From a virus (Duplodnaviria > Heunggongvirae > Uroviricota > Caudoviricetes): DNA of 18,768 nucleotides. This document shows positions 1 to 14,644 of the stretch, piece by piece. The notes under the pieces are model-generated. The model had not been told where the DNA came from. It was given only the letters and a program-made list of their open reading frames with translations, and did not search any database. Location of the stretch: IMG/VR virus record IMGVR_UViG_2718217897_000009, positions 1 to 18,768 of that record, one strand, 5' to 3'. The stretch's first letter is position 1. Each line of letters opens with the position of its first letter. The position numbers and the translations under genes are program-made.

Positions 1-933
1 TCAGCCCTTAAACACGTTATAGCCGAGTTGCTTAGCGACCGATGCCACCATTTTTTGACCGCGAACACTGTTGCCATCTTCGTCCAGCGGTGGTGAGAAC
101 GCGGCAATTCCCATCACTCCAGGGACGACCGCCAGAATACCGCCACCTACACCGCTTTTGCCCGGTAAACCAACACGATACGCCCAGTCACCGGAGCGAC
201 CATACAGCCCTTCCATCATCATTTCGGCCAGAATGTACGGCACGTTGTCGGCCTGAAGAACGCGTTTATGCGTCAACGGATTCACACCACCTGCCGCCAG
301 CGTCGCGCCAAGCGTTGCCAGTTCAATAGTATTGAGGAGCGTGGAGCACTGACGGGTATACACGTCACAGGCTTCCATTGCATCACAATAGAGATATCCG
401 GCGGAGTACAGCAGCCAGGCTATGGCCCGGTTATGGAAGTTGGTTGTTTGTTCCGACTGGTTGACTTCGTCAGAGAGCGCTACCTGCTCGCCAGCCAGTT
501 GCTGTTGGATATGTAAAATTCGCTGCCAGCGTTGTTCAACATTTTCAGCGTTAATCAGGCTGGTGGTGGCAATAGCGCCAGCATTTACCAGTGGCGAAAG
601 CGGTTTGCCGCCATGCAACTCTAAGGCGATAACTGAGTTAAAGGGCAATCCGGTCGGGTCAGCGCCAATTTTGTCCTGTACCGCCTGCGGGCCGACATCT
701 TCTAACGCAAGGGCTAACGTACAGACTTTCGAGATGGATTCCAGTGCAAAGCGGTAATCACTGTCACCCGCACTATAGACGTTGCCATCGCAGGTCACGA
801 TAGCCACTGCCGCCAGTTGACCTGGTACATTCGCCAGAAAGGGAATGTAATCGGCATTTTGTCCGCCGTTAAGTGAGTGAAATTGGGTGTAAGCCTGATC
901 CACTGCCTGCTGTAATTTGTTTGCATCTAACAT
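1..933 (-). CDS. glsA: Glutaminase 1 (GlsA/YbaS), complete 310-aa ORF; stop codon at window positions 1-3
   Basis: Full-length translation matches E. coli glutaminase YbaS as I remember it (MLDANKLQQAVDQAYTQFHSLNGG... GVGGGILAVVPGV...); serine-dependent glutaminase-type motifs present. Confidence 0.9.
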   Translation of the reverse strand: MLDANKLQQAVDQAYTQFHSLNGGQNADYIPFLANVPGQLAAVAIVTCDGNVYSAGDSDYRFALESISKVCTLALALEDVGPQAVQDKIGADPTGLPFNSVIALELHGGKPLSPLVNAGAIATTSLINAENVEQRWQRILHIQQQLAGEQVALSDEVNQSEQTTNFHNRAIAWLLYSAGYLYCDAMEACDVYTRQCSTLLNTIELATLGATLAAGGVNPLTHKRVLQADNVPYILAEMMMEGLYGRSGDWAYRVGLPGKSGVGGGILAVVPGVMGIAAFSPPLDEDGNSVRGQKMVASVAKQLGYNVFKG

Positions 934-1210
934 CTTTTGTTAACTCCTTTTTATAGATGCGGGAGGTAATTCCTCACCCCGGTGCCGATTTTCAGGCATC
1001 CTGATTTAACTTAGCACCCGCAACTTAACTACAGGAAAACAAAGAGATAAATGTCTAATCCTGATGCAAATCGAGCCGATTTTTTAATCTTTACGGACTT
1101 TTACCCGCCTGGTTTATTAATTTCTTGACCTTCCCCTTGCTGGTTTTTTAAGTACTGCGTGACGCAACATTACGCCACGCATTTTCAATGAGTTAACGAA
1201 TCAAACTAAT
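934..1210. other. Host-prophage junction; expected attL region between the glsA start and the 3' end of int
   Basis: Non-coding stretch between a host housekeeping gene and a P2-type integrase. In P2 the attachment site lies just downstream of int. The core sequence cannot be defined without the other prophage end. Confidence 0.35.
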
Positions 1211-2227
1211 TTAATTTTTCCTTTTTCTCTCAAAGTTTGGACACTCGAGTGGCATTCTCTGCAATGGATTATGCAGCACTGCGTCCTCCAGATATTCAGG
1301 CGAAAAATGCGCATAAGTCATCGTCTGCGATATATCTGCATGACCGAGTATTCTTTGCAGCGAAACAATATTCCCGCCGTTCATCATGAAATGAGTAGCA
1401 AAGGTGTGCCTAAGGACGTGAACAGCTTGCCCGTCTGGCAGGTTAGGCTTAGCCTCCTTGAGCTTTAAACGGAACCACTTATAACTCACGCGGAACAGTC
1501 GCCCCTCATTGCGATTTTTCACCAACCGGACAACATCGTCAGAAACGGGAACCACGCGACGCTTGCCATTCTTCGTGAAGTTGAAAACAACCTTGTTACC
1601 GACAATATGTTCAGCCATCAATTGGTAAGCCTCATTCCACCGCGCCCCTGTGGAAAGCAACAAAACAGCCATGCGGTAGTAATCTATTTTGTCTCCACAG
1701 ATAGAGAGAAATCTCTCTATTTCCTCAGTTGTCAAATAAGACATTTCGGGCGCTTTTTCTTTTAAGCGAGGAAGTGCTAACACCGGATTACCGCCGTGAT
1801 ATTCCCCAATCTCAGTCATTGCTTTCAGTACAGCACTAAGAGCAAAGAGATCGTGGTTGATTGTTGATGCCTTGATACCACTGTCAAGACGGCGCGATCT
1901 GTAATCAGCAATCATACGTTCATCAATCTCACACATCATTGGGTCACCCATATCAAGGCAAATACACCGAAGATTACTCAACCTGCGGTTCGCATAATCC
2001 TTATGGCGACCAATCAGCCTCCACCAGATAGCAATAAAATCGCTAAGATGACGCTTATCAATCAGATTGCCAAAACAATCAGGTGAAGGACTGCTCGCAA
2101 GAATTTCGCGCTCAAATGCTAGGGCCTGACTTCTTTTTTCAAATTTGCGACGGACGCGCTTCCCTTTGCCTCCGTTCAGCCTCATGTCCACGATGTAGCG
2201 ACCATCTTCGAGCTTCTTAATTGACAT
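1211..2227 (-). CDS. int: P2-family tyrosine integrase
   Basis: Translation MSIKKLEDGRY...LSTGARWNEA...HVLRHTFATHFMMNGGNIVSLQRILGH...TYAHF resembles P2 Int with the catalytic R..HxxR..Y region. Start chosen at the internal ATG (2225-2227) preceded by GGAGG; the ORF track extends 5 codons further. Confidence 0.9.
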   Translation of the reverse strand: MSIKKLEDGRYIVDMRLNGGKGKRVRRKFEKRSQALAFEREILASSPSPDCFGNLIDKRHLSDFIAIWWRLIGRHKDYANRRLSNLRCICLDMGDPMMCEIDERMIADYRSRRLDSGIKASTINHDLFALSAVLKAMTEIGEYHGGNPVLALPRLKEKAPEMSYLTTEEIERFLSICGDKIDYYRMAVLLLSTGARWNEAYQLMAEHIVGNKVVFNFTKNGKRRVVPVSDDVVRLVKNRNEGRLFRVSYKWFRLKLKEAKPNLPDGQAVHVLRHTFATHFMMNGGNIVSLQRILGHADISQTMTYAHFSPEYLEDAVLHNPLQRMPLECPNFERKRKN

Positions 2228-2296
2228 AAGAAGACCCTCCAACGGTCATATCTCCATCCTGAAAACAAATGGAGAAAATGTAATGTTTATAAAGTG

Positions 2297-2596
2297 TTAA
2301 CCAGTTAGTTTCCCGGATGGGGTAGACGTTGTTTCGCTCGGCCCACAGTGTGCGAGAGCTGGGGCTATTTGCCCGCGAGCAGGATCAATACGGTCATACA
2401 TAAACCAGTCCTGATACTTGTTAAAACGAGGATGCCCAAAAATCTTGATTGCAGCCTCTAAAGTCATTTTTGATTTGTCCCGCTCATATCCGTGATAGGT
2501 CGTGTAATTCAGCCCAACTAAATCAACAAGTTGTTGTTTTGTTAGTCTTTCAGAATCACGTATAAGAGCTAACTTCTCGCCTTGTGAAATTGACAT
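2297..2596 (-). CDS. P2 C-type immunity repressor (99 aa)
   Basis: 99-aa protein with HTH-like N-terminus and a C-terminal GQIAPALAH...ETTS.P.SG..TG segment that matches P2 repressor C as I remember it; sits immediately upstream of int on the same strand, as in P2. Confidence 0.8.
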   Translation of the reverse strand: MSISQGEKLALIRDSERLTKQQLVDLVGLNYTTYHGYERDKSKMTLEAAIKIFGHPRFNKYQDWFMYDRIDPARGQIAPALAHCGPSETTSTPSGKLTG

Positions 2597-2719
2597 ATTT
2601 ACGAGATCTCCATATAGTTACCTAAAAACCATACGCCACCGCATAATGCGAAATGGCGGCATATGCCAGATGCTGACTTAACAAGCCTCAACAAACGGCA
2701 ACAGAGGAGTGTACCAAAA
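2597..2719. promoter_or_regulatory. Immunity-switch intergenic region with two short perfect palindromes (CGCATAATGCG at 2640-2650, GGCATATGCC at 2658-2667)
   Basis: Palindromes read directly from the sequence between the divergently placed repressor and Cox-position ORFs; candidate operator sites. Confidence 0.35.
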
Positions 2720-3043
2720 ATGACAGAACGACGAGATCTCCAACAAATCACGACTCATCAACATTGTCGTCAGTATCCGCTAGACGGGTATCTGGCTATG
2801 AATATTTGCAAGATGACGGCCCGGCAAATAAGCCGCATTCGAGACATGAGTTTGAGTGAGTTGCGCAAGCAAGAGTATGTATCCAGGGAAGAGTTTGCCT
2901 ATATCACTGGGCGCACTTTCAAAGCGACAGGAAACTACCTGGACCGCAATGAAGATCTTGTCTACAGGGAGTATGCAACACCTAACGCCGCATACCCGCC
3001 CAGACAGCCGAATCACGCAGCTCTGGCAGCGCCTGAGCCGTAA
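2720..3043 (+). CDS. Putative Cox/Apl-position early regulator (start ATG 2720 preceded by GAGGAG); family not recognised
   Basis: ORF divergent from the repressor in the position of P2 cox. RBS GAGGAG sits 10 nt upstream of the ATG. The C-terminal 20 residues are proline-rich and look like out-of-frame translation, so the 3' end is uncertain. Confidence 0.35.
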   Translation: MTERRDLQQITTHQHCRQYPLDGYLAMNICKMTARQISRIRDMSLSELRKQEYVSREEFAYITGRTFKATGNYLDRNEDLVYREYATPNAAYPPRQPNHAALAAPEP

Positions 3044-3371
3044 TCACGGCGTAAGCAGCACAGAGATCCGCCATAACCCGGTCGCCAGCTATCTGGAACA
3101 ACTGGGGGCATCAGACCCCGAAGCCGCCGCACGTCTGGCATCCACACTTCAGCAGGACCAGAACACCATGAAAACCCCCGTTACCGTGCTTTCTGACATG
3201 CTGCGCGCCATCCGTGACGCAGAGCACGCACAGAGAATCAGTGAAACCACTGAACGCGCCCACCGCAAAGCAGACCTGCTGCGGGGTAGCCTGACCAGTG
3301 GAAACAAAAAACAGACAGAAACGGGACTCACAAATCCCGTAAATGAGCAAAAAACGCGCCGCGATATATGA
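2973..3371 (+). CDS. Hypothetical ORF overlapping the 3' end of the Cox-position ORF in another frame; possible frameshifted continuation
   Basis: Frame 0 from about 3000 to 3371 shows coding-like codon usage (G-rich first position, ctg/gcc/cgt codons). Start is uncertain; the ATG at 2973 follows AGGGAG with too short a spacer. Confidence 0.2.
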   Translation: MQHLTPHTRPDSRITQLWQRLSRNHGVSSTEIRHNPVASYLEQLGASDPEAAARLASTLQQDQNTMKTPVTVLSDMLRAIRDAEHAQRISETTERAHRKADLLRGSLTSGNKKQTETGLTNPVNEQKTRRDI

Positions 3372-3447
3372 AGCGCGCACAAAACAGGCAAAAGCGGGAT
3401 TTAAAAATCCTGTAACCGATTAATTAATCAACATAAGGAAAAGCGAC
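3300..3447 (+). promoter_or_regulatory. Candidate parC-like centromere/promoter region upstream of parM
   Basis: Inverted repeat ACGGGA-N8-TCCCGT, palindrome GGATTTAAAAATCC and direct repeats AAATCC(C/T)GTAA lie upstream of the AAGGAA RBS of parM. In plasmid R1, parC lies immediately upstream of parM. Confidence 0.3.
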
Positions 3448-4407
3448 ATGAAAATTTGTATCGACGACGGCTCCACCAACATCAAGCTGGCATGGACTGA
3501 GAACGGCAAACGCCGCAACGCCATCAGCCCGAACAGCTTCAAGTCGGAATGGTCTGCGCCGTTCGGTGGCACGCAGCCCGCGAACTACATGCTTGATGGC
3601 GTGCGCTATGGTTTTGATCCGGTCAGCGATCGCTTTGTCCAGACGACCGACACGCAATACCAGTACAGCGATGTGAATGTAATTGCCATTCATCACGCGC
3701 TGGTCAAATCAGGCATCACACCACAGGAGGTGGATGTGGTTGTCACCCTGCCACTGAGCGAGTATTTCGATACAAACGCACAGCCGGACATGGCCAACAT
3801 CAACCGCAAAAAAGCGAACGTCATGCGCCCGGTGGAGTACCAGAACGGCGAAGCATTCACTATCCGTAACGTACGGGTTATGCCTGAATCCATTCCGGCT
3901 GGCTTTAAGGCACTGGCTGACATGAGTCCGTTTGAATCCCTGCTGATTGTGGATTTGGGCGGAACCACGCTGGATGTGGCAAAGGTTCAGGGGCAACTGG
4001 CAGGTATTAGCCAAGTGTTTTGCGATCCACACGTAGGCGTTTCTCTGATGGCCGATGCCGTACTGTCGGTGATGGCCACTAACGGTATGCGCACCAGTCA
4101 CCACATCGCCAATACCATTATCGAACATCGCCATGATGAAGCCTGGCTGCGCCAGCACATCCACAATGACGCGCATTACAACAGCCTGATGGCGGTTATT
4201 CGTGAAAAGGAAGAAACACTGAAACAACGCGTGATCCGCGCGCTGGCGGTTTTTTCGGGTTACGGGCGGGTGATGGTTGTCGGTGGCGGGGCGGAGATTG
4301 TGGCACCCGCTATCCGCGAAGCCTGCGGAGTTAATGCGACTTTCATCGCGGACGGGGTGCCACAGTTTGCTCTGGTTAATGGGCTGTACGCAATGAACAA
4401 GGAGTAA
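3448..4407 (+). CDS. parM: ParM/StbA-family actin-like segregation ATPase
   Basis: N-terminus MKICIDDGSTNIKLAW...ISPNSFKSEW and internal DLGGTTLD, VMPESIPAG and VVGGGAE motifs match plasmid R1 ParM/StbA as I remember it. Confidence 0.85.
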   Translation: MKICIDDGSTNIKLAWTENGKRRNAISPNSFKSEWSAPFGGTQPANYMLDGVRYGFDPVSDRFVQTTDTQYQYSDVNVIAIHHALVKSGITPQEVDVVVTLPLSEYFDTNAQPDMANINRKKANVMRPVEYQNGEAFTIRNVRVMPESIPAGFKALADMSPFESLLIVDLGGTTLDVAKVQGQLAGISQVFCDPHVGVSLMADAVLSVMATNGMRTSHHIANTIIEHRHDEAWLRQHIHNDAHYNSLMAVIREKEETLKQRVIRALAVFSGYGRVMVVGGGAEIVAPAIREACGVNATFIADGVPQFALVNGLYAMNKE

Positions 4408-4411
4408 ACCA

Positions 4412-4726
4412 ATGACGACACCAACCAGACGGATAAGTTTCTATCTGAAGCCCGCCGCCGTCAAGAGTGAACAGGAGGCGTGCAATTACCTCGATAGCCT
4501 GCCAGCCTCCGAACGCAGCCGCGCGCAACGCGCGGCCTTTCTGGCTGGGCTAGCACTCATAAAGCGCAACCCAGCATTTGCCTACTGGATGGCCGAATGG
4601 CCAGAGGACAACCTCCCCTTCAATACCGTTAGCATCAAGGAAACATACCAGGCTAATCAGCCTAGCGGAGTTGAATGCAATTTTTATAAAATAAAAAAGA
4701 ATATTCAGACCTTATTCCCAGAATAA
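4412..4726 (+). CDS. parR: ParR-family centromere-binding adaptor
   Basis: 104-aa protein RRISFYLKP...LDSLP.SERSRAQRAAFLAGLAL...LFPE resembles R1 ParR (RRTIAFKLNP...LDSIPQGERSRLNRAALTAGLAL...LFPKE); AAGGAG RBS; immediately downstream of parM. Confidence 0.75.
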   Translation: MTTPTRRISFYLKPAAVKSEQEACNYLDSLPASERSRAQRAAFLAGLALIKRNPAFAYWMAEWPEDNLPFNTVSIKETYQANQPSGVECNFYKIKKNIQTLFPE

Positions 4727-4773
4727 TCTGATAATTGTATGTGAACTAATAAAATACATACCAACACATCATT

Positions 4774-4798
4774 CTGGCACCCTTGCTAACAGGGTGCC
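4774..4798. terminator. Hairpin (8-bp stem TGGCACCC/GGGTGCCA, 9-nt loop) between convergent parR and the cargo gene
   Basis: Inverted repeat read directly; no strong T-tract on either strand, so terminator function is tentative. Confidence 0.3.
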
Positions 4799-4809
4799 AA
4801 TGTTTCAAA

Positions 4810-5652
4810 TCATGATGAAATTGCCGAAGTTTTTTTATCGTGCTGAAGTACCGCAAATGCCATTAAAACCTCAAGAGAATAGCGACGATAATACTTAACA
4901 AAACCATAATAAAATACTCGGGATGCAGCAATACAAAACAAGAGAAGAAAACAAAAAGGTAACAGCCTGATATTTATATCTATTAAAAAGGATAGAAGGA
5001 ACAGGAACATAAGCAACCAGACTGAAGCGAGAAAAACAAATGTAATGTTTCTACAAAAACCATACAAAGCAACATAGTTTTGCATTTTCACCTGATGATT
5101 TTTAGAATGTTCATACACATAATGATAAGCAAGGCGAAAAAGATCGCCCCTCAAGCCCTTACGTCGATATAGCGTAGATACAGAAAAAACATTTATATAA
5201 CCATCTCGTATTTGCGGCCAAAAGACTTTAATAAGTATAGAATGCAGTGTGGTTTTATGATGTTCTGCTTTATCAAAAGCTGATACAGGAAGTAAAAAAA
5301 CTCCACGGATAAAATTAACTATACTGAACTTAGTATTATGTCGTTTTATTTTCAGGGAGCTTCTTTTAGAAAACAGATAAATTGAAGGATACCCAAGTTT
5401 ACTGTTCATATATTTTTCAATTAAACAGGATGATAGAATAGATATGAAGTGACCTGAAATATATGATAGAACGATTAATACCACATATATAAATACAGTT
5501 ATTATTTCTTTATATTTCAGGATATGGTTAAGAATACCTTCTATATAAACAGGGTTAATTTCAATAGAAAACAAAAAAAGGATAAACAGGAATAACCCAC
5601 CTGGAATTAGATAGCCCAAAAAGTCATAAAATGAAAACGGATTCTGTGTCAC
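4810..5652 (-). CDS. Hypothetical multi-pass membrane protein (280 aa, GTG start), low-GC cargo
   Basis: Long ORF in a markedly AT-rich segment; hydrophobic stretches at about residues 13-30, 50-75, 205-230 and 238-256; no recognised catalytic motif. Confidence 0.6.
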   Translation of the reverse strand: MTQNPFSFYDFLGYLIPGGLFLFILFLFSIEINPVYIEGILNHILKYKEIITVFIYVVLIVLSYISGHFISILSSCLIEKYMNSKLGYPSIYLFSKRSSLKIKRHNTKFSIVNFIRGVFLLPVSAFDKAEHHKTTLHSILIKVFWPQIRDGYINVFSVSTLYRRKGLRGDLFRLAYHYVYEHSKNHQVKMQNYVALYGFCRNITFVFLASVWLLMFLFLLSFLIDINIRLLPFCFLLLFCIAASRVFYYGFVKYYRRYSLEVLMAFAVLQHDKKTSAISS

Positions 5653-5691
5653 ACTTCCCCCTGTGTTACTTGTAAATTAAAGGGTAAAACA

Positions 5692-6189
5692 TTATTTGTT
5701 TTTCCGTAAAGGATTAGCTTTCCATCTTCTTACTAACCATTCGAATTCTTGATATGTAGTATCCGAATTAATGCTTTCTCTGATTGCTTTAATTAATGGC
5801 TCGGCAATATCATATGTCTCTACAACTGTTGTGTAAGATGTTCTTTTTATCATTTTTTCATCATAAATACCTTCACGAATACTTACAGCAACTCGCTCGT
5901 AAAAATTTAAAATATATTGAAATTTTCGACGCTCGGCCATTTCTTCATCTGTTATTGTGCAACCATCACAAGGAAAAACATAAGAACGAAATGATTTGCC
6001 TGAACGATGCACTTGTTTCAGGGTATGCAATGACTCTATATATTGCATATCTTGCCGACTCTCAAAAAGAAAGTTGGCCGTTTGAGTTTTTTTTGCGGTA
6101 CGCACATTGTAGATAATGGTTCCAATGGCAACCAAAACGCCAAGCAGAACAATAGCATTGCTGATGATTTGTAGTGTTATTGGGTTCAT
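5692..6189 (-). CDS. Hypothetical protein with a single N-terminal TM helix (165 aa), low-GC cargo
   Basis: ORF with hydrophobic N-terminus (IISNAIVLLGVLVAIGTIIY) followed by a charged soluble domain; same strand as and 39 bp upstream of the 280-aa gene. Confidence 0.6.
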   Translation of the reverse strand: MNPITLQIISNAIVLLGVLVAIGTIIYNVRTAKKTQTANFLFESRQDMQYIESLHTLKQVHRSGKSFRSYVFPCDGCTITDEEMAERRKFQYILNFYERVAVSIREGIYDEKMIKRTSYTTVVETYDIAEPLIKAIRESINSDTTYQEFEWLVRRWKANPLRKNK

Positions 6190-6214
6190 CCTATTTCATC
6201 CATAAAAAAGGCGG

Positions 6215-6225
6215 GGAGCAAATCC
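6215..6225. repeat. IS186 target-site duplication, left copy (GGAGCAAATCC)
   Basis: Identical 11-bp sequence directly flanks both ends of the element. Confidence 0.75.
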
Positions 6226-7564
6226 CATAAGCGCTAACTTAAGGGTTGAACCATCTGAAGAATGCGACGCCTCGGTGCCTCGTTAAGACGATGCCTCGCG
6301 TTCTTCAATTGCGTTTTGTAGGCTGTCAGGGATACTGTCCCACGAATGGCCACCTGTAAGCTCCAGATGACCATTTTTGTTATTCTCCACAACGAGTTAG
6401 TTCTTCTTTTCGGATCCGGCACTTCTGGGGGGGAAATCCAGCGATGGCTGGATTATGTCGTCAATTAAAAATGCGGCGAGTAGATTAGCAAATATCCACG
6501 CTTTCGCGAGTTCAGGTTCCTTTGCACGCAAAGCATCCAGGTGCAGCAAACTTTTGAGCCGCTTAAAAGCCAGTTCAATTTGCCATCGCAGACGGTAACA
6601 ATCAGCCACTTGCTCTGCTGAATATTCATCTTCCGGTAATGATGTTAGCAATAGCACATGGCCCGCTGCTTCCAGCGTTTCCGCCTGAACTACTCGTCCT
6701 TTTCGACGATTCTCGCTGAGCAGTCGGGTTTTACTGATTAATGCTTTTTCGGGAGGAAGTGATACGGCAATGAGACGTGCCGGAAAGGGAGCTCCGGCTT
6801 TTTTATTACCTGAATTGCCTATCATTACAGTGGTTTCACCGTTCTTACCGCAATCCAGCCCGCGCAGAAAACCCATCATGTCAAAGCGCATTCCTTCTGC
6901 AGTTAACCAGCGCAATCCTCGCCAGTGAACCCGGACGATATAATCAGCTTCTCCAAAAGCAAGTGAGCGGATACATTCGGGACGCGAACCGAATCCCCGG
7001 TCAGCAATGCGTATCTCGTCTGCCGTTTGCGCAAATCGGTCCAGCCGTTCAGCGTCTCTGCTGTCGGTTAGCTCAAAATCAGTGAACTGACAGGTATGAG
7101 GATCATATCCCATATGTAGTCGCCATTCAGCGCTGCCGCCCCCGGGCGCACTGATTGCTGTTCCATCGACAAGACGCAATCTCTTTCCGCTTGTACAACC
7201 CGTAACTGCGGCGCGTACAGCAAGTGTTTGTGCGGCAAGTATGCCAAACCAGTCGGCGGCATTCCGCAGCCGCTTCAGGAGAGCCACGTCAGATAATGTT
7301 GCAACGTCATGGAGCTGAGCCCATGCAGTGACTTCACGTAATGACATCCCCCCGGGGCCGTAAGCCAGCCCCAGACGTAGCAGAGTTGCAGCATCACGAA
7401 TTTCGCGGCGGCGGGTTAGAGCCCCGGCATTACGTGCCGAAGTATCCAGTTCTTCGGGCTTACCAATATGGGCCAGAATTGCTGACCAGTTATCGTGAGA
7501 GTAATTCATCGGCACGTTAAATCATATCAGGCGTAATACCACAACCCTTAAGTTAGCGCTTATG
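6226..7564 (-). mobile_element. IS186 (IS4 family), 1339 bp, perfect 23-bp terminal inverted repeats CATAAGCGCTAACTTAAGGGTTG
   Basis: Terminal inverted repeats at 6226-6248 and 7542-7564 read directly; the internal ORF matches the IS186 transposase; flanked by an 11-bp direct repeat. Confidence 0.9.
6397..7509 (-). CDS. IS186 transposase (DDE, IS4 family), 370 aa
   Basis: Translation MNYSHDNWSAILAHIGKPEELDTSARNAGALTRRREIRDAATLLRLGLAYGPGG... matches IS186 transposase over its full length as I remember it; the ORF track starts two codons earlier (MPMNY). Confidence 0.9.
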   Translation of the reverse strand: MNYSHDNWSAILAHIGKPEELDTSARNAGALTRRREIRDAATLLRLGLAYGPGGMSLREVTAWAQLHDVATLSDVALLKRLRNAADWFGILAAQTLAVRAAVTGCTSGKRLRLVDGTAISAPGGGSAEWRLHMGYDPHTCQFTDFELTDSRDAERLDRFAQTADEIRIADRGFGSRPECIRSLAFGEADYIVRVHWRGLRWLTAEGMRFDMMGFLRGLDCGKNGETTVMIGNSGNKKAGAPFPARLIAVSLPPEKALISKTRLLSENRRKGRVVQAETLEAAGHVLLLTSLPEDEYSAEQVADCYRLRWQIELAFKRLKSLLHLDALRAKEPELAKAWIFANLLAAFLIDDIIQPSLDFPPRSAGSEKKN

Positions 7565-7575
7565 GGAGCAAATCC
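7565..7575. repeat. IS186 target-site duplication, right copy (GGAGCAAATCC)
   Basis: Identical to 6215-6225. Confidence 0.75.
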
Positions 7576-7736
7576 CCGCCTCATTAGAGGTCAACGTAGC
7601 TTAGAAACCATCAAATTCATCATGCATTTTTTTCATATCAACCCCCTCATAGAAATCATAACCACGTTTTGTGGTTTTTGTGATGCATAAACTACATCAA
7701 AGGCAAGCTACGGTCAAATATATGGGCATGCTTACC

Positions 7737-7766
7737 TGCACAAAAGTGCACAAATTTGCACAATTT
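7737..7766. repeat. Three direct repeats of TGCACAA phased exactly 10 bp apart
   Basis: TGCACAA at 7737-7743, 7747-7753 and 7757-7763, followed by a T7 run; helical-turn phasing suggests a protein-binding array. Confidence 0.5.
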
Positions 7767-8075
7767 TTTTGAACGACTTTTTACCCTTCCGGCCCGCGTG
7801 GCAGCTGGATCCGTCAGGGATCCGTGCATGCACAAAAAAACGCGTTTTTGTTGCGCGCAGGTGCCGGGGGAACAGCCCGCAATTTGGGGTCTGAAAGCAT
7901 CCTCAGAAATCGCCAGAAATGCTGCTGATTGTGCCCCTGACGCGATGTTTTATTGGTTGTGTGGTGAAGTATGGGCTGATGCATCACATGCCTGTGATGC
8001 ACTTTGATGCGACGTGTGCTGACAGGTTATTCAACCTGGTAGATCCCTGAGATGCCTGGTGCGTGACACACCGGA

Positions 8076-8099
8076 GCTGGTGAGTCGGGGCATAAATTT
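8076..8099. other. Near-perfect palindrome CGGGGCATAAA-TT-TTTATGCCCCG about 37 bp downstream of the portal stop
   Basis: Read directly; 11-bp arms; no adjacent T-tract on the minus strand. Confidence 0.4.
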
Positions 8100-8135
8100 T
8101 TATGCCCCGGAGAAGCAGCAGACAAGCGGAGCGCG

Positions 8136-9185
8136 TCAGGATATGGGCGGGGTATCCAGCAGTGCGTAAGGGTTAAAACGGATCACCTCTTCGCCCAGCC
8201 AGTCATTAACGTGCTTCATCGCCTCCATCACCGGCATCAGTTCGTTGATCGCAAACACTCTGGCCGCCTTCTCCACATCACCAAAAGAACCCTGCCCGCT
8301 GGGCATTGCGCCCATCAGTTGTGGTGGTACACGGTGAGCGGCCAGCACATCATCACGGGAGGCCGCCTTGACGTTCATGAACTCATCCCGGGCGGTGATC
8401 TGCTGGAATGGCAGGATTTGCACACCGTCCTTCCCGCCGTTCGGTGCCTGGAGTAGCAGGTTCTTGAATGCCCCACCGCCTCTTGCGCCCTGCAACGCTC
8501 TTTCGAGAGCCTGCATACTTTCGCGATCAACCTGTGCTGCCCCCACGTAAATGATGCAGCCTGCATGTGAACCGTTGTCATAGTAGAGTTTGCGGAAGCG
8601 ATCTGCCGAGTGCGACAGACTGGCAGACAACAGGCCACCGAGATATTCCGGCATTCCGTACATCTCCTGGTTGATGTCGGGGTTCAGCACATGGCAGACG
8701 CGCCCCTGACGGAACTCGTGGTCCTGCTCCCCCGTCTGCACAAACCAGTACACATCCGGCTCAACACCACGACGGACGTATTTTGCCAGCGCGTGCCGTA
8801 GTTCCAGTTTTCCGCCCAGCCTGTTGGTGCGCAGTTCAAGAAACGCATTCCCGAAGACAAACCAGTCCAGCGCAAAGGCGGAGAACGCCTGCCGGGAGAG
8901 CAGCCGGTGCGGAATGAAGCAGCCCAGTATGGCATTCCGCTTGAAGTACAGCGCCGACTGGTGCCACGAGGTCTGCCGGGATGCCCGCGCCAGTCCGTAC
9001 CAGTCAACGGGCGTTTCGTAGTATCTGCCGTTACTCAGGCAGTATGCGTTATCCAGCAGGTCGAGTGCGTGCGCATCGTAAGGGCCGTCGAACGAGAAGG
9101 CGCTTAACGACGGCTGGCGGCGCAGTGCCTCTGCCAGCGCCACGCCGTCATCGCGGCGCGAATATTTTCGTTTTTGTTTTTTCAT
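8136..9185 (-). CDS. Phage portal protein (P2 gpQ-like), 349 aa
   Basis: Size and position match P2 Q (344 aa); start ATG overlaps the stop of the upstream terminase ORF (ATGA), as expected for the P-Q arrangement. The family assignment is a recollection-level call. Confidence 0.7.
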   Translation of the reverse strand: MKKQKRKYSRRDDGVALAEALRRQPSLSAFSFDGPYDAHALDLLDNAYCLSNGRYYETPVDWYGLARASRQTSWHQSALYFKRNAILGCFIPHRLLSRQAFSAFALDWFVFGNAFLELRTNRLGGKLELRHALAKYVRRGVEPDVYWFVQTGEQDHEFRQGRVCHVLNPDINQEMYGMPEYLGGLLSASLSHSADRFRKLYYDNGSHAGCIIYVGAAQVDRESMQALERALQGARGGGAFKNLLLQAPNGGKDGVQILPFQQITARDEFMNVKAASRDDVLAAHRVPPQLMGAMPSGQGSFGDVEKAARVFAINELMPVMEAMKHVNDWLGEEVIRFNPYALLDTPPIS

Positions 9186-9751
9186 CAGAACTCAATCACC
9201 CGCATTCCTGTTGCACCGTCCTCATCGCCCAGCGGCTCGTTAATGACGGCAAGCATGGTTGCCCACGCGAGGTCGCCGTGGTTTACGCCGCGTGTGCGGT
9301 CTGTTTCATACGTTATTGCCCCGCCCGCCGTTTTTGCCTTGCGCACAGCGTTGAATGCCCTGACCAGCTCACGTTCGCCCCGGTCATACTCCCAGCGCCC
9401 CGCACGAATAATCTGCAGCATCTTCAGCACAAGCGCGCGTTTGGATGCCAGCGTGAACGTGTACGGCACGGCGGCAGGCCAGAACCGCCGCACTATCTGG
9501 TACACTGCCTCACCGTTACCGCCGGTCACGTCGATACCAATGTGCTGGACGTTGTATTTGTGCGTGAACTGCTCAATCACACGGGCCTGCTCTTCAAATT
9601 CCAGCCCCTGCACCTGCAACGTCTCCACCGTGCGGAATTTGCCGCCCCTGACGGCAGGCGGTACAACAACAGACAGCGCCCCGCTGACGTAGCAGGAAAC
9701 AGGGGGATTTGCCCCTGTTTTTTTGTTCAGAATGCAGCCTTCACCATTCAT
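9185..9751 (-). pseudogene. 5'-truncated terminase large subunit (C-terminal nuclease domain only; ATPase domain missing)
   Basis: 188-aa ORF with terminase-nuclease-like features (IGIDVTGG ... VNHGDLAWATMLAV near the C-terminus) but no ATPase domain. P2 gpP is about 590 aa. The first ~18 codons overlap a hairpin/T-run and a tail-gene remnant, so the annotated start is probably spurious. Confidence 0.55.
9696..9723 (+). terminator. Rho-independent terminator-like hairpin (AAACAGGGG/CCCCTGTTT stem, T7 run)
   Basis: Inverted repeat followed by TTTTTTT on the plus strand. Confidence 0.45.
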
Positions 9752-9850
9752 CTCTAATCGTATTCAGTAATTCGCCCGCAGAAACAAACTAAAATTCATC
9801 CCCCGCATCACGCCACTGAAAGCAGACGGTAAACTCCAGATTTTCAAACC
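9726..9850 (-). pseudogene. Diverged remnant of the 3' end of a gpU-like tail gene
   Basis: About 70% nucleotide similarity to the 3' end of the intact U gene at 10508-10640, including the shared TTCAGAATGCAGCC and CTGAAAGC blocks; the minus-strand translation (..EFTVCFQWRDAGDEF*FVSAGELLN..) parallels the U C-terminus (..EFSISFQRCDEDMRERFQSASAGELLN..) but contains a stop. Confidence 0.4.
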
Positions 9851-10171
9851 AGCGTCAGAAGTATTTAAATGGCACCAGATGTAATATGCAGGCGATTAAT
9901 ATGGTGTGCTTAAAGATCATAAAAGCGGGCAACATTAAAACTCCGGGCTGTGTAAATTACCGCCACTCATAATCAGAGATGAAAACAGAATTAAACTGGC
10001 GGAGTGGATTGTATACATAAAATAAGTTCAGTTGTTGACTTTCACTTCCGTGAATTGATGAAGGTTATTACAATACATCGGTATGATCTCTCCTCCTTAA
10101 AAGGGAGGACTTTTCAGAACGCAGAAATTATTTATAATCCCGTAGTGTTCTATACATGCAAACATTCTTTT

Positions 10172-10195
10172 CCCGCCCCGTGCGGGCTTTTTTTT
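10172..10195 (+). terminator. Terminator-like hairpin (CCCGC/GCGGG stem, T8 run)
   Basis: Read directly; preceded about 35 bp upstream by a perfect TATAAT (10133-10138). Confidence 0.4.
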
Positions 10196-10285
10196 GCCGC
10201 AAAGATACAGTAACAAACAAAATTGTAATCATGGCAATCAAAACACGAGAAACATTTTCAGCAATTGCAATAACAAATTAAAATA

Positions 10286-10315
10286 TTGCAATTGACAATC
10301 CCCGCTTAATATAAT
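10286..10315 (+). promoter_or_regulatory. Sigma70-like promoter (-35 TTGCAA, 18-bp spacer, -10 TATAAT)
   Basis: Hexamers read directly; a terminator lies about 45 bp downstream, giving a predicted transcript of about 60 nt. Confidence 0.35.
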
Positions 10316-10359
10316 CCCTTCCGGAACATAGAACATTAAATCTTCACACAATGCATGTT

Positions 10360-10383
10360 GCCCTCTTTATGAGGGCTTTTTTT
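10360..10383 (+). terminator. Rho-independent terminator (GCCCTC/GAGGGC stem, T7 run)
   Basis: Perfect 6-bp GC-rich stem, 5-nt loop, TTTTTTT. Confidence 0.5.
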
Positions 10384-10401
10384 ATTTCCAGAATATCACC
10401 A

Positions 10402-10430
10402 TTGCCATCATCGGGCGATTTATATATAGT
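10402..10430 (+). promoter_or_regulatory. Sigma70-like promoter (-35 TTGCCA, 17-bp spacer, -10 TATAGT)
   Basis: Hexamers read directly; a terminator lies about 45 bp downstream. Confidence 0.3.
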
Positions 10431-10476
10431 CAGAATGTATTGACAACATTTTGCTTCTTTTCCATGAAGGCCATAA

Positions 10477-10506
10477 GGGAGTGCTTTTTACACTCCCTCT
10501 TTTTTT
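10477..10506 (+). terminator. Rho-independent terminator (GGGAGTG/CACTCCC stem, T7 run) abutting the U stop codon on the opposite strand
   Basis: Perfect 7-bp stem, 7-nt loop, T-run; oriented to stop plus-strand transcription before it runs antisense into the tail operon. Confidence 0.5.
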
Positions 10507-10508
10507 AT

Positions 10509-10967
10509 TCAGAATGCAGCCACAGGCATTTTGTCTTTAAGCGCGTTCAGCAGTTCGCCCGCAGAAGCAGACTGAAACCGCTCTCTCATATCCTCATCAC
10601 ACCGCTGAAAGCTGATGGAAAACTCAATCTTTTTTGCCTTTCCGTAACGATCCAGCTCGGAGCGGGTGGTCTGTAATCCTGTAATCACGTACATTCCGTA
10701 AATCTGCCCCGTGCCATCAATCAGCGGCCAGGGACATCCGGTGTAGGCCTGGGTGTTCAGCAGTGTCAGTGACACCTCACCACCGGTAATTTCCGGGTAC
10801 AACAGACCGGACAGCGTGATCTGATCGTCACCTGCGCCAATATACTGCCAGGCCGCAGAGCGGTTAATGCGCTCATTTTTCACATGTCGCCATGTTTTGC
10901 TCTGCTGGATCTGCTGATGCGGAAGCGTTTTCAGCTCAAACACAAACATGCCAAAAATCATCATCAT
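10509..10967 (-). CDS. Tail protein gpU-like (152 aa)
   Basis: Triple-Met start (MMMIFGMFVFELK...) preceded by AAGGAGA; size and position (immediately after the tape-measure gene) match P2 U. Confidence 0.8.
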   Translation of the reverse strand: MMMIFGMFVFELKTLPHQQIQQSKTWRHVKNERINRSAAWQYIGAGDDQITLSGLLYPEITGGEVSLTLLNTQAYTGCPWPLIDGTGQIYGMYVITGLQTTRSELDRYGKAKKIEFSISFQRCDEDMRERFQSASAGELLNALKDKMPVAAF

Positions 10968-10980
10968 AATTGCGTCTCCT

Positions 10981-13900
10981 TTAGTCCCTGTCGCGGAAGC
11001 TGTTCATGCCTGTACGCGCCTGTCTGCGCATCTCTTCGCGGACGGCCTCACCAACCAGTTTTGCCAGTTCGCGCGGATTCTGTGTGTTGACGTTGTGCAG
11101 ATGTACATGTATCTCACCGGAAAACGCAGCAGCCTGTGGTTGTGGCGTAGCTTCCCTTCTGGCCGCTTCCGGTCGCAACGGGGGCCGGATAGCCTCCGCG
11201 ACGGGAGCGGAAGCCATCACCGCCCCCGTCATACCTTCAGCCACGTTACGCGGCTGCGGCAGTGCGGAGACCTGGCGGGCCACGTTCACAACGGGAGCGG
11301 GGGCACTCACCGCAGGGGTGGGCAGTACACCTGTCAGTCTCTGCCAGAGCATTGTCAGTGCATCCGTCAGCCCTACGCCCGCCGATACCGCCTGCACCGT
11401 CCGGACAACCTGCGGTGCTTTCCACTCGCCGTGAATGATTTCGGGTCCGGGCAGATTTTTGAAAACAATATCGCCGGGACCGACGCGCCTGCGTGTTTCC
11501 TCAAGAAGCCCGCCTGTATTGCTGGCGGTTTTCTGTATCCCCTGCCGGAACCATGCCTCATCCAGCGGGGATTTGCTGCCGGGTTTGCCGACCGGATTGT
11601 CCGCCGTTCCCCTCACCTCTCCGGGAACAGCAGGGGCAGGTTTATTGTCACCGTTGTTTTCCGCTGCATCTGATGACCACGACCATGTTTTCTGCACCAT
11701 TTTTTTCTGTGCAGGATCCCACTCCCACGCAACCGGCGCTTTTTGTGTGGACTGTTTTGCGGCGCTCTCCTGGAGTTTTTGCGTCTCCTTCTGTGCCTCT
11801 TTGATGCCGTCCGGGATGACACCCAGCCACTTCAGCACGGTACCGAGGCCATCAAGGAGCAGCGTCATCGGCCCCAGCACAATGTTCTGAATGACCCACC
11901 CCAGCGTTTTCCCGAACGACTCCCCTGCACTGGTGCATTTGTCGAGCGTCTCTTTTGAGGCGTTTGCAGGTTCAAGCAGGCGGGTGAACCACTCCCACAC
12001 GGCTTTGATGCCGTCACCAATCAGCCCGAACACCGGAGCCAGCGATGCAAAGGCTTCCCGCAGCGGTTGCAGCGCCTCCCACACTCCGGCAAAAAAGCCG
12101 GAAAAAAACGCGCTGATCGGATCCCAGTATTTCCACACCAGAACCGCGCCGCCCACCAGGGCGGCAACAATCAGCCCGACCGGACTGAACAGCGCCCCCA
12201 GTGCGCCACCCAGAACCGACACCGCCCCCGTGACCAGCCCCCACAGCGCAGGCAGCCCCGTCAGGCGCAGTGCCATCGCAGACACAAGCCGGACAGCACC
12301 ACCAATGCCACCGCCCCCCGTCAGCAGCCCCAGTCCCAGTTGCAGTTTTGCCAGCGGCCCCGCAATCAGCCCGAGCGTCAGTGACAGCGCACCGAACGTG
12401 GAAGACAGCGCCAGAACACTCCCGCCGGTCAGCACCAGGACTCTGACCAGCGCCTGATGCTCTCCGGCCCATTCGCGCATCCGGGTCACCCACGCGCTCA
12501 CCGTCTGAACCAGCCCGCGCAAATCCTCGGTCACAGTACCGAAGATGTCCGTGCGTAGCCCTGAGAACGCACCACTCAGCGCCTGAATATCGCCGGAAAG
12601 ATTACCGCGCAGCGTCTGCCCCATGCGGTCTGCCACGCCGCTGACATCACCCAGGTTGTCACGGACATCGGCCAGCGCCTTTAAGAACTGCGGGATCTGG
12701 TCAACGGAGAGGTCTTCAACGGGTGTGCCGAACAGCGCAATGGCCGTGTTCGCCCGCTCTGCCGGGTCACGGATGGCCAGCAGTGCACGGGCGGTCACCT
12801 GCATCGCCTGACGAGCGGTGCTGCCTCCCTGTGCAATGGCAGCAGACACCCGCTCAGCATTCAGGCCGAGAGTCTCATACGCTGAGACACTGGATTTCGA
12901 CATATCCGAACCCCGGATGCTGAACTCCTTCACGGCATCGCCGGTTTTGTCCAGCGCAAACTTGCCCTGCTTTGCCATCTCAACCAGCAGACTCATTGTC
13001 TCGCTGCCGGTGAAGCCCATGTTGCGGAAGTGGGTGGAATACTCGTGCAGAATTTCCGGCAGTTCATCGCGCATTTCAGCGGACATACGCTGCATCCCTG
13101 CCGTCATCAGGTTAGTAGCCTCGTCACTGCTGGCAGCCAGCCCGTTCTTCATCATGATGGCAGCGGCCTGAATGCTCTGCGGCACATCAACACCAAAGAC
13201 GGTCCGCATATCCAGCGCACGACGGCTGATGCGCTCCAGTTCCCGGTCGCCGGTGTCGCCCAGTGCACCGAGCGTACTGCGTACCGCACTCACAGCCTCC
13301 GCAGCACCGGCAAAATCAGCGAGACCGTCAGCCTGTATGTTACGAATAATGTGGGTGTAACGTGCGCCATCCTGTGCGCCTTCCCCCGAACCGGCTGCGA
13401 TGACCGCACCGTGCTGTTCGGACTCCATCGCCGGAGCCATCATACGCTGCGCCGCATACAGGCCGCCTGTACCCGCCGCCATCGCCACAGCCCCTGTGTT
13501 GCGCAGTTTTTCCGCCTGTGCCTTCGCGGCCTCATAGCGGCTCTGTGCCTGCGTCACGCGAGCCAGAGCCTGCCGTTCACGCTCGAGCTGCTCGTTGTAC
13601 TGCTGTGTACGGCGAACGGCACTTTCAATGGTGCGGCTGCTGCCGGAAAGCAGAATGCCGTGTTTGCGCATTTCCCCTGCCGCCGCCTGAAGTTTTTCGC
13701 GTTCGCGCGTGCGCAGCTCGTTCAGGCGCTCAAGCCGCGCGGAGAGTGCCGCCAGCGTTTCACGCTGCTTTTCGGAGAGGATGTTACCGTTCTGCTCTGC
13801 CTTTCGCAGCCCGGCGAGCCTCTGCTCCGCGCGGGCAATCTGTTCGCGGTATTTACTGAGATTTCCGGCGGCACGTTCGAACACCTTCGACTGCCTGTCG

Positions 13901-14067: not shown

Positions 14068-14598
14068 GCCAGCTCATCACCTCGACGAGAGGCATTGAGA
14101 ATATCCCGCCGGGCGACCAGTTAAACACGACTGCTATATCGGCGACCAGTTCTTCAACGTTGTCGAACTTCGCCAGCGTGATTACGCTTCCATCACCGCC
14201 ACGGACGGTTTCGCAGACTCCGTGGGAGCCAAAAAATTCGCCACCAGAGTTGCCAGCGCCACGAAATCACCGGTGGACAGTGACTGAATTTCTGCCAGCT
14301 TCAGGCGTGGTGCGGTCACGCGCGAAAGCAGCGTCATCATCGGGTCCGTTTTGAGGTTCAGCACCTCAATCAGAGACAGCCCGCGCAACGAGCCTGCCTG
14401 GCGGATTTCCTCGCCAATCTCCACATAGTCAATAACGCGTTCGCCACGCACCACCGGGCAGGATAACTGCACACCCGTTTTTTCCTCTGCGGCTTCTGCG
14501 TTATCCACGGTGTTTTCCTCTGCCACATCGATGTTTTCAGTGGTGGTGTCACCTGCGACGATTTCGCTGTTCATGATGTCATCTTTCTTTGCTGCCAT
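14018..14598 (-). CDS. gpE+E' fusion produced by programmed -1 frameshift at T TTT TTG (14230-14236); extension ends at TGA 14018-14020, overlapping the tape-measure start
   Basis: The -1 frame after the slippery site is open for about 70 codons (FFGSHGVCETVRGGDGSVITLAKFDNVEELVADIAVVFNWSPGGIFSMPLVEVMSWRERAAQRSGVRNSEIP) and terminates inside the start of T, the geometry known for P2 E/E'. Confidence 0.55.
14182..14598 (-). CDS. Tail assembly chaperone gpE-like (zero-frame product, 138 aa)
   Basis: ORF between the tube and tape-measure genes with a GGAG RBS; contains the conserved slippery heptamer near its 3' end. Confidence 0.75.
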   Translation of the reverse strand: MAAKKDDIMNSEIVAGDTTTENIDVAEENTVDNAEAAEEKTGVQLSCPVVRGERVIDYVEIGEEIRQAGSLRGLSLIEVLNLKTDPMMTLLSRVTAPRLKLAEIQSLSTGDFVALATLVANFLAPTESAKPSVAVMEA

Positions 14599-14613
14599 TT
14601 TTCTTTCTCCTGT

Positions 14614-14632
14614 GGCGGCACAATGTGCCGCC
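14614..14632. other. Perfect 19-bp palindrome GGCGGCACA-A-TGTGCCGCC in the FII-E intergenic region
   Basis: Read directly; no T-tract; possible mRNA stem-loop modulating expression between tube and chaperone genes. Confidence 0.4.
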
Positions 14633-14644
14633 CTGTTAATGCTG

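Follow-up and report, generated by a model that had tools for sequence, protein, structure and literature searches.

Two AT-rich genes for predicted membrane proteins, designated geneA and geneB, are carried on the minus strand of the window analysed here, the whole 18,768-nt stretch of viral DNA at positions 1 to 18,768 of IMG/VR record IMGVR_UViG_2718217897_000009. Each gene was found to belong to a large protein family, and among the loci searched the two families occurred together in a single near-clonal Escherichia coli lineage and singly elsewhere. The explanation favoured as a whole, held tentatively at somewhat under an even chance, is that these are two independent, separately mobile single-gene prophage morons, stacked in one transcription unit by one E. 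coli P2-like lineage, whose products would act at the membrane against superinfecting phage. The two genes and the spacer between them are as follows.

5692..6189, minus strand: geneA, 165-aa DUF4760 protein (open reading frame (ORF) with ATG start; Pfam PF15956; identical to WP_001068330)
5653..5691, minus strand: geneA-geneB spacer of 39 nt, with Shine-Dalgarno sequence GGGGGAAG for the geneB GTG start (from the sequence)
4810..5652, minus strand: geneB, 280-aa inner-membrane protein (ORF with GTG start; PADLOC Csx27 model; PHROG 12528)

The pair occupies the gpA-to-Q slot of a P2-like prophage, the same slot that holds tin/old in P2, and the gpA-to-Q order of the window was also found in the intact phage vB_EcoM-705R2. 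The tin/old slot of P2 is a validated anti-phage reservoir according to Rousset et al. 2022. The guanine-plus-cytosine (GC) content was 0.317 for geneB and 0.351 for geneA (both genes 32-35%) versus 0.525 for the whole window, with flanking values of 0.547 (ParM), 0.505 (ParR-like), 0.521 (IS421 transposase) and 0.587 (portal). The original prediction, made from the letters of the sequence, had described two co-oriented minus-strand genes with one and at least four transmembrane helices, sharply AT-rich and placed at the tin/old position of a P2-like prophage. Coordinates and helix counts were confirmed by ORF calls, hydropathy and secondary structure, the AT-richness by GC content (32-35% versus 50-59% in the flanks), and the site by the RefSeq gene order of an identical locus.

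The two protein families and where their genes occur

The geneA product matched PF15956 over profile positions 2-141 of 141 with 120.1 bits (gathering cutoff 25, E 1.1e-34), and the same family was matched by all 54 aligned geneA relatives (54/54); sequence homologues numbered 111. A single N-terminal transmembrane helix was located at about residues 8-29 by hydropathy and charge, and because this segment is followed by R30, K33 and K34, the C-terminus with the soluble domain is predicted to be cytoplasmic (N-out/C-in). The soluble part was predicted to be an all-helical cytoplasmic domain of ~130 aa. In the AlphaFold2 (AF2) model (predicted local distance difference test, pLDDT, 94; predicted template modelling score, pTM, 0.81), a long helix bearing the transmembrane segment is followed by a compact helical domain. 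No match to geneA was obtained in NCBIfam, or in PADLOC-DB v2 at E <= 1, and a BFVD structure search with the geneA model returned one relative and no annotated fold mates. For both proteins, PHROG matches carried no assigned function and PDB sequence searches gave noise only (nopaline-binding protein, growth hormone). A 286-aa DUF4760 variant with about three extra N-terminal transmembrane helices was observed in Acinetobacter phage A3926.3 (L142 2707-3567), likewise with a micro-ORF and a terminator upstream; the extra helices indicate that the family varies in how it is anchored in the membrane.

The GTG start of geneB is supported by its homologues, which begin M-x-Q-N-P-F-S at the same position. 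Transmembrane segments were placed by hydropathy at about residues 8-30, 47-78, 198-224 and 228-250, in agreement with the helices of the AF2 model, which reached a pLDDT of only 64. The layout is thus two plus two transmembrane segments around a central loop of ~115 aa, which contains 20 K+R versus 5 D+E and is predicted to be cytoplasmic because it is so strongly basic. The family shares the N-terminal signature NPFSxYDFLGYxxPG, and residues F6, Y14, P17, Y64, G67, S74, E79, H177, R201 and K253 are invariant, as is H68. There were 358 sequence homologues, and a family profile extended these to 1,092 clusters at 50% identity. No family was found for geneB in Pfam or NCBIfam. The PADLOC Csx27 model (PDLC01605) was matched at E 1.2e-5 and 23.9 bits, residues 6-243 falling on profile positions 4-178 of 206, which is a remote match. 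The same model was matched by 25/25 close geneB relatives (best E 5.6e-8) and by 59/100 diverse relatives only ~30% identical (best E 2.2e-10), and no competing family appeared. On these matches geneB is best filed in the four-transmembrane Csx27 superfamily, as a remote member. Within PADLOC-DB v2 it matched Csx27 and tm_4 only, both of which are accessories rather than systems. The original prediction had recognised no characterised family in either protein; this was wrong for geneA, which is a Pfam DUF4760 protein, and for geneB, which matches the Csx27 model.

The likeness to Csx27 of type VI-B1 lies in the four predicted transmembrane helices, in a match that spans nearly the whole model, and in the immunity-related gene neighbourhoods in which both Csx27 and the geneB family are found. 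The differences are one of length (~280 aa for geneB versus ~200 positions in the hidden Markov model, with the extra cytoplasmic loop of ~115 aa in geneB) and one of setting, geneB being a solo moron in temperate Enterobacterales phages. No cas13b, other Cas gene or CRISPR array was found near geneB in the window; with no cas13b or CRISPR array adjoining, geneB is not taken to be Csx27 proper. Makarova and colleagues in 2019 reportedly described an expansive four-transmembrane Csx27 family, predicted to form single-stranded DNA membrane channels. Csx27 was not found outside VI-B loci by Smargon et al., and was shown by them to lower Cas13b interference, that of heterologous Cas13b included. 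Two later papers give the four-transmembrane Csx27 family as predicted membrane channels (PMC7642515, PMC11662929, citing Makarova 2019), and in one of them the family is tied by gene neighbourhood to natural-transformation machinery (PMC7642515).

Co-transcription of geneA and geneB is implied by the 39-nt spacer, in which no terminator-like site was found. Solo relatives of geneB are preceded by AT-rich promoter regions of their own. In E. coli O111:H8 strain 9662 (L036), geneA differs from that of the window by 4 nt and the middle of geneB differs by 11-22%. Over the equivalent of window positions 4947-5546, the centre of this mosaic geneB was 78-93% identical per 100-nt window, with 93-100% in geneA, ParM and ParR; the pattern points to recombination with a diverged geneB allele, geneA and geneB having been treated as separate units. 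Between the two geneB alleles dN/dS (nonsynonymous to synonymous substitution rate ratio) was 0.25, which indicates purifying selection.

Gene neighbourhoods were compared in 139 loci drawn from genomes, phage records and IMG/VR, which were searched by hmmsearch with profiles for geneA, geneB, ParM, ParR, gpA and the portal protein. Both genes occurred together only in an E. coli lineage of at least 96% identity, always in the order portal-(cos)-A-B-ParR-ParM-gpA. DUF4760 was found alone in ~55 other loci and the geneB family alone in ~60. Each gene was present in exactly 289 of 5,426 complete E. coli genomes, at 292 places, all chromosomal and nearly all at least 99% identical. The paired lineage includes the inducible phages vB_EcoM-705R2 and 569R5 as well as a prophage of sequence type 131 (ST131).

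DUF4760 adjoins the portal gene in 16 other P2-like loci (15 complete copies and the L027 fragment), which include a Pectobacterium prophage, Citrobacter phage Shae_phiSM and 14 other IMG/VR contigs; the portal-adjacent copies are 74-90% identical to the window protein. The geneB gene was absent from Shae_phiSM and from the 15 other P2-like loci. DUF4760 was in turn absent from P2 and from many ParMR-bearing P2-like phages of E. coli; it was present in 15 of 50,697 phage records. ParMR accompanied DUF4760 only in the E. coli and Citrobacter lineage, and Shae_phiSM carries ParMR and DUF4760 with no geneB. ParM and ParR were considered as members of the cassette and rejected, as they were found without geneB, and DUF4760 was found in other genera without ParMR. 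In E. coli, ParMR-bearing P2-like phages carry several alternative cargos, of which the pair is one. Among the P2-like loci the gene content between DUF4760 and gpA differed (L104-L119, L010, L027). ORFs labelled by eye in this interval included an orphan Dam-like methyltransferase, a Gabija-like ATPase with a UvrD-like helicase (L112), a ParA-like and RelA/SpoT-like pair (L119) and a Fic and HicAB-like set (L027).

Outside P2-like phages, DUF4760 was found directly downstream of cI and on the same strand in Pseudomonas phage D14E, adjoining the integrase in Acinetobacter and Alteromonas phages, and between large virion-protein genes and the tailspike, beside Bro-N, in Klebsiella and Serratia prophages; the last is the position of sieA in P22. 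Relatives of geneB (~44% identical) stood alone in ~52 viral contigs and in lambdoid prophages of E. coli, Salmonella and Klebsiella (L002-L009 among them), with cI on one side and xis/int on the other, or else within the nin/replication region. Some lay beside an AIPR-like ORF, a kinase/phosphatase-like pair or a methyltransferase (labels by ORF reading). In 64/77 DUF4760 loci and 77/78 geneB-family loci, the GC content of the gene was lower than that of its flanks by more than 8 points.

These counts bear unevenly on what had been predicted. The AT-rich, moron-like composition was borne out in 64/77 and 77/78 loci. To call the pair a two-gene cassette proved misleading, because the two genes are paired in one near-clonal E. 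coli lineage only and each is solo elsewhere. As variable cargo, geneB fits (absent from the 16 other loci), and DUF4760, kept beside the portal in all of them, fits only in part. The question of a core gene had a divided answer: DUF4760 is conserved beside the portal in 16 P2-like loci, yet absent from P2 and most phages. The description of the locus as undescribed stands in part. Its gene content is listed in Table S5 of Rousset et al. 2022, where it was read as a plasmid-partition locus and not assayed, and in the available part of a supplementary table of that study Plasmid_stab_B appears at least 494 times and DUF4760 at least 197 times; neither family belongs to a validated defence system.

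The leader upstream of DUF4760 genes

In vB_EcoM-705R2 the region 5' of geneA contains, in order, a promoter-like site, a Shine-Dalgarno sequence, an 11-codon ORF (MKKMYDEFDGF-stop) and an 18-nt spacer; these are followed by a 10-bp GC-rich hairpin with a T-run and then, 12 nt on, by the region leading to the geneA start. A terminator scan of this phage (L012; leader region L012 5856-6000) gave the stem as 10 bp with 7 GC pairs. The leader architecture was common to DUF4760 genes in every kind of genomic context. The peptide core [DE][EDQ][FYW][DE][GW][FILV] was present in 44/47 distinct DUF4760 upstream regions, in 29 nucleotide versions and in ORFs of 8-12 codons, each preceded by a Shine-Dalgarno sequence. 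Differences from the consensus over the six core codons numbered 9, 6 and 74 at codon positions 1, 2 and 3, respectively; 54 were synonymous and 25 non-synonymous, the latter mostly conservative (D/E, F/Y, F to I/L/V). The third-position bias and the conservative changes argue that the micro-ORF is translated and selected as a peptide.

With a stricter, stop-anchored motif, the leader was scored in 38/47 upstream regions, and a hairpin with a T-run lay between the leader stop and the DUF4760 start in 36/38. The two loci without a terminator keep the micro-ORF, 26-27 nt upstream of DUF4760. The terminator stems vary between loci, with the pairing kept. In distant Acinetobacter and Alteromonas phages, with DUF4760 members 26-28% identical, a short ORF rich in D/E, G and aromatics was again present, ending in ...NEGWDF-stop, ...DGWDDI-stop or ...DGYGLG-stop, and a terminator followed in 2/3. 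Rfam gave nothing at gathering score in the window and noise only in the leader, and nothing relevant was found in a search for publications on the leader motif DEFDGF.

From this anatomy the leader and terminator look like a leader-peptide attenuator. Like the trp and phe leaders, TnaC, ErmCL and ToiL-topAI, the DUF4760 leaders have a short translated upstream ORF under peptide-level selection, and as with attenuators and arrest peptides an intrinsic terminator lies directly before the regulated gene. They differ from known attenuators in that no antiterminator was found and that two loci lack the terminator. To our knowledge the D-E-F/Y-D/E-G-F-stop motif matches no known arrest peptide. The leader peptide itself could be functional, for instance as a ligand of DUF4760, since the motif drifts with DUF4760 divergence and the micro-ORF persists in loci without the terminator. 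As a lead only, the acidic-aromatic C-terminus of the leader (FDEFDGF-COOH) resembles the C-terminal tip of the E. coli single-stranded DNA-binding protein (DFDDDIPF-COOH), so that the leader could conceivably act as a free mimic peptide. The leader with its terminator is a candidate new regulatory element, and hints that expression may be sensitive to translational state, which is disturbed in phage infection.

RNAalifold recovered the terminator together with a small hairpin (alignment columns 41-54) around the stop codon of the leader. This hairpin has two covarying pairs, each joining the third base of a codon, Asp or Gly, to a nucleotide immediately 3' of the stop (CG/UA and UA/CG in 5-6 of 13 sequences); the covariation is weak and probably amounts to a difference between two clades. 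A helix between the leader Shine-Dalgarno sequence and an anti-Shine-Dalgarno in the conserved TTAACCTCT spacer could be paired by eye in several loci; it was not predicted by RNAalifold, and the TTAACCTCT spacer is not conserved outside one clade.

In the window the leader has been split by an insertion sequence (IS), IS421. The parts of the leader and of the insertion are given below.

7655..7684, minus strand: candidate sigma-70-like promoter for the leader-geneA-geneB transcript (consensus match only; mapped from L012 5856-5885)
7601..7636, minus strand: leader micro-ORF MKKMHDEFDGF-stop, with Shine-Dalgarno sequence GAGGGGG at 7642-7648 (from the sequence)
7564..7600, minus strand: displaced 5' half of the attenuator, comprising the 18-nt spacer GCTACGTTGACCTCTAAT and the hairpin 5' arm GAGGCGGGGA (versus vB_EcoM-705R2)
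6227..7563 (+/-1 nt at each end), minus strand: IS421 (IS186-like, IS4 family), by BLAST versus vB_EcoM-705R2, RefSeq and terminal repeats
6397-7515, minus strand: IS421 transposase (RefSeq)
6214-6226 and 7564-7576: IS421 target duplication of 11-13 bp (GGGATTTGCTCCC), at the top of the terminator hairpin
6190..6226, minus strand: remaining geneA leader, comprising the terminator 3' arm, the T-run and the conserved TATGGATGAAA ribosome-binding region (versus L012 5958-6000)

IS421 interrupts the hairpin loop of the terminator and is oriented like geneA, and the leader ORF and hairpin 5' arm now lie 1.3 kb upstream of geneA. With the insertion inside the hairpin, the attenuator of the window copy is taken to be broken, and we infer that expression of this copy would have to come from read-through of the insertion sequence or from a promoter that it carries. 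The IS421 junction was common to 5/289 genomes. The IS421 family prefers GC-rich hairpins as targets. Another IS421 copy lies in the nupC terminator, in similar sequence, and IS421 thus seems to target GC-rich terminator hairpins. A DUF4760 remnant was considered as the source of the likeness between IS flanks and was rejected, since other IS421 copies have similar flanks, the one examined being that in the nupC terminator.

Proposed function and its alternatives

A lysogen-expressed, membrane-acting role in exclusion or abortive infection is considered the most likely function, by analogy. As proposed, geneA would travel with its own control region (promoter, leader ORF, terminator, gene), and it and anything placed behind it would stay off until translation of the leader is perturbed. 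The geneB gene, 39 nt behind geneA, would have been placed under the geneA switch in this lineage; elsewhere it would be a stand-alone gene with its own promoter. Both proteins would be expressed from the prophage and would counter superinfecting phage at the inner membrane: geneB would be a membrane effector that blocks DNA entry or perturbs the membrane, and geneA a sensor or adaptor tethered to the membrane and made conditionally, with neither needing the other. Lysogen expression and anti-phage activity are suggested by position and by analogy with SieA, RexB, SieB and other membrane effectors. The slots typical of lysogeny (downstream of cI, by the integrase, at the sieA position) were counted in favour of lysogen expression. 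On this account, being adjacent in a hotspot does not make genes a system; what moves here is a single gene together with its leader.

The pair resembles the tin/old cargo of P2-like phages (old, tin, and the TIR+2TM+1TM set, a TIR protein with two- and one-transmembrane proteins, of phage AC1) in lying in the gpA-Q slot, convergent with the early operon, in being AT-rich and swapped between related phages, and in involving membrane proteins. It differs in having no enzymatic partner (TIR, ATPase or nuclease) with geneA or geneB and no match to the PADLOC models of those systems, and in that DUF4760 is a conserved edge gene and not swapped cargo. To the prophage exclusion proteins P22 SieA, lambda RexB and SieB, HK97 gp15 and T4 Imm the two proteins are alike as small single-gene inner-membrane proteins, and the genes are likewise AT-rich morons in slots expressed in lysogeny (post-cI; between virion and tailspike genes, the SieA position). 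SieA differs in having three transmembrane helices and no soluble domain. No Sie family in Pfam was matched by the two window proteins (E <= 1) or by 54 DUF4760 members (E <= 10). The defence-annotation check called for by the original prediction matched no curated system model, save Csx27 for geneB.

Several observations weigh against a defence role and its proposed control. Neither protein matched a validated defence protein in PADLOC-DB v2, and Csx27 damps Cas13b interference instead of giving defence. DUF4760 was also found isolated between housekeeping operons, in a non-phage chromosomal context, and its constant place adjoining cos in P2-like phages fits the phage's own biology equally well. 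In Pectobacterium DUF4760 was 79% identical versus 68% for the portal, a conservation across genera at least as high as that of the portal. The AT-richness may partly reflect the codon content of proteins rich in transmembrane segments. The attenuator reading is drawn from anatomy, with no conserved antiterminator found by RNAalifold, and a search of the literature for DUF4760 by name returned one paper, which was irrelevant. In a 2026 preprint, only 15-32% of the unknown proteins in P2 hotspots were predicted to be antiviral by machine-learning scoring. Neither protein is mentioned in the supplements of Vassallo 2022 or of the 2026 P2/P4 preprint.

A non-defence role in phage or host, with the genes as lysogenic-conversion or housekeeping morons, is somewhat unlikely and is the strongest of the alternatives. 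DUF4760 could serve in the timing of lysis or lysogeny, in membrane anchoring of the ParMR-partitioned prophage or in a stress response, and the Csx27-like protein could serve in transport or DNA uptake. Leader-peptide attenuators classically control biosynthetic, transport and antibiotic-resistance genes, which counts for such a role, as do the position of DUF4760 beside the portal in 16 P2-like loci (15 complete) across genera at 74-90% identity, its non-phage chromosomal contexts, its association with ParMR in E. coli, and the neighbourhood link of the Csx27 family to natural-transformation machinery. However, DUF4760 is not core, being absent from P2 and most phages (15/50,697 records), and it accompanies ParMR only in the E. 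coli and Citrobacter lineage. Both families recur in classic exclusion or defence slots, and defence-like genes lie beside some geneB relatives and in the DUF4760-gpA gap.

A true two-component system, with DUF4760 as sensor or regulator and a Csx27-like effector channel, mutually dependent at least in the E. coli lineage, is considered improbable. The genes are co-oriented at 39-nt spacing with no terminator between them; they co-occur perfectly, each in exactly 289 genomes and 292 places, and the pair is kept even with a geneB allele differing by 11%. Combinations of a multi-transmembrane protein with a partner are also common in defence, as in the TIR+2TM+1TM set of phage AC1 at the same hotspot. 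All of these pairs, however, fall in one near-clonal lineage and represent a single evolutionary event; elsewhere no partner was found within 6-8 kb (~55 DUF4760 and ~60 geneB-family loci), and solo geneB genes have promoters of their own. The 280-aa geneB subtype has been seen only with geneA, though just two alleles are known.

Counter-defence, in which a phage relative of Csx27 would damp a host immune effector and so protect the prophage or its progeny, is very improbable. Homologues of host immune regulators are common in phages, geneB-family proteins match the Csx27 model, and Csx27 lowers Cas13b interference, heterologous Cas13b included; against this, the hosts are Enterobacterales, no cas13b neighbour was seen in the 139 loci, the Csx27 match is remote (24 bits), and the gene positions are typical of lysogen expression, not of early anti-defence genes.

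A reading of the ORFs as remnants in decay, or as products of chance in the AT-rich junk of a dead prophage, is refuted for both coding sequences: the prophage is badly degraded (gpA and terminase fragments, internal deletion, Dam pseudogene, IS), but geneA and geneB are full length and of the same length as in inducible phages, their families are large and conserved (dN/dS 0.25; DUF4760 model pLDDT 94), and long ORFs are improbable by chance at 33% GC because stop codons are AT-rich.

If the two stacked morons act as proposed, they would be prophage membrane morons of the exclusion or abortive-infection kind, unusual for a Csx27-type protein outside CRISPR loci, for a leader switch and for an EP-like fold. 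Should either gene protect lysogens, the defence repertoire would gain two large families of single-gene membrane modules. About 5% of complete E. coli genomes, ST131 included, carry the locus, and the Csx27-like family exceeds 1,000 clusters at 50% identity; through its kinship with Csx27, geneB would offer a tractable way to study a family of CRISPR accessory proteins in E. coli.

The EP-like fold refers to the geneA model, which was closest in fold to the plant proteins EDS1, PAD4 and SAG101. Its structural neighbours, with their scores, were the following.

8zf0_C: PAD4, 11.3
4nfu_B: SAG101, 11.1
7xey_B: PAD4, 10.8
4nfu_A: EDS1, 10.3

The EDS1 family also ranked top in Foldseek (probability up to 0.98, query TM-score 0.52-0.58, E ~0.3), and sequence identity to the EDS1-family chains was 6-10%. 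As the geneA model is all-helical, the match would have to fall on the helical EP domain. The EP domain (PF18117) of EDS1, PAD4 and SAG101 is the receptor for the TIR-made molecules pRib-AMP/ADP and ADPr-ATP. Its fold is said to be without structural relatives beyond its own family (PMC6377607). PF18117 was not matched by any of the 54 DUF4760 members at E <= 10, and no EDS1 chain was returned at E <= 10 when the DUF4760 profile was searched against PDB. DUF4760 is like the EP domain in being all-helical, and it has conserved basic residues, among them R45, K65, R68, R99, K115 and R137; it differs in being membrane-anchored, in having no lipase-like domain and in spanning ~60% of the EP domain. 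It differs from the EDS1 system further in that no TIR gene was among the annotated neighbours of the sampled DUF4760 and geneB loci. That the resemblance reflects common descent is unlikely on the model comparison, though a good deal short of improbable. A fuller proposal, a long shot, would make DUF4760 the equivalent of the EP domain in bacteria and phages: tethered to the membrane, it would be a receptor that binds a small molecule or peptide, its synthesis would be gated by an arrest-type leader and, in the E. coli lineage, it would switch on a Csx27-like channel against phage. If this were true, one prophage locus would bring together the receptor fold of plant immunity, a family of CRISPR accessory proteins and a new translational sensor; confirmation of an EP-like fold by itself would bear on the origin of the plant EDS1 signalling module.

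Prophage context and copy state

The window was 100% identical to the chromosome of E. coli H1827/12. In RefSeq the order there runs glsA | integrase, helix-turn-helix protein, gpA fragment, ParM, partition (ParR-like) protein, geneB (as hypothetical), DUF4760 and IS421, and continues after IS421 with the portal, tail genes, gpD, ogr and a Dam pseudogene | copA, the upright bars marking glsA and copA off from the rest. The features around the pair are listed below.

2988..3371, plus strand: gpA (replication endonuclease) fragment, early-region edge of the hotspot (RefSeq 'replication endonuclease, incomplete'; gpA match)
3448..4407, plus strand: ParM, convergent with geneB and outside the two-gene unit (RefSeq)
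4412..4726, plus strand: ParR/StbB-like protein, convergent with geneB and outside the two-gene unit (RefSeq)
4775..4799, no strand assigned: candidate bidirectional terminator, a 9-bp GC-rich hairpin between the convergent geneB and ParR-like genes (RNA fold of 4740-4815)
8136..9185, minus strand: portal protein Q, late-region edge of the hotspot (RefSeq)

The hairpin at 4775..4799 has no clear U-run on the geneB strand, and is accordingly listed as a candidate only. The portal protein of the window is 77% identical to that of vB_EcoM-705R2. The prophage is a remnant: gpA and the terminase gene survive as fragments and Dam as a pseudogene, and there are an internal deletion and the IS insertion. 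Capsid, lysis and baseplate genes are gone, and both membrane-protein genes are still intact. The ParMR genes of the window belong to its P2-like lineage; about a quarter of P2-like phages have a ParMR-type partition system according to Rousset et al. 2022.

The terminase fragment was found to be mis-annotated as 'oxidoreductase'. An unannotated low-GC stretch (0.36-0.41) lies at 9690-10520, its sole recognisable part being 9855-9941, a P2 tail-fibre/tail-fibre-assembly junction. The ParM/ParR-like pair lies here inside an integrated prophage, and the same pair was found in two large E. coli plasmid records.

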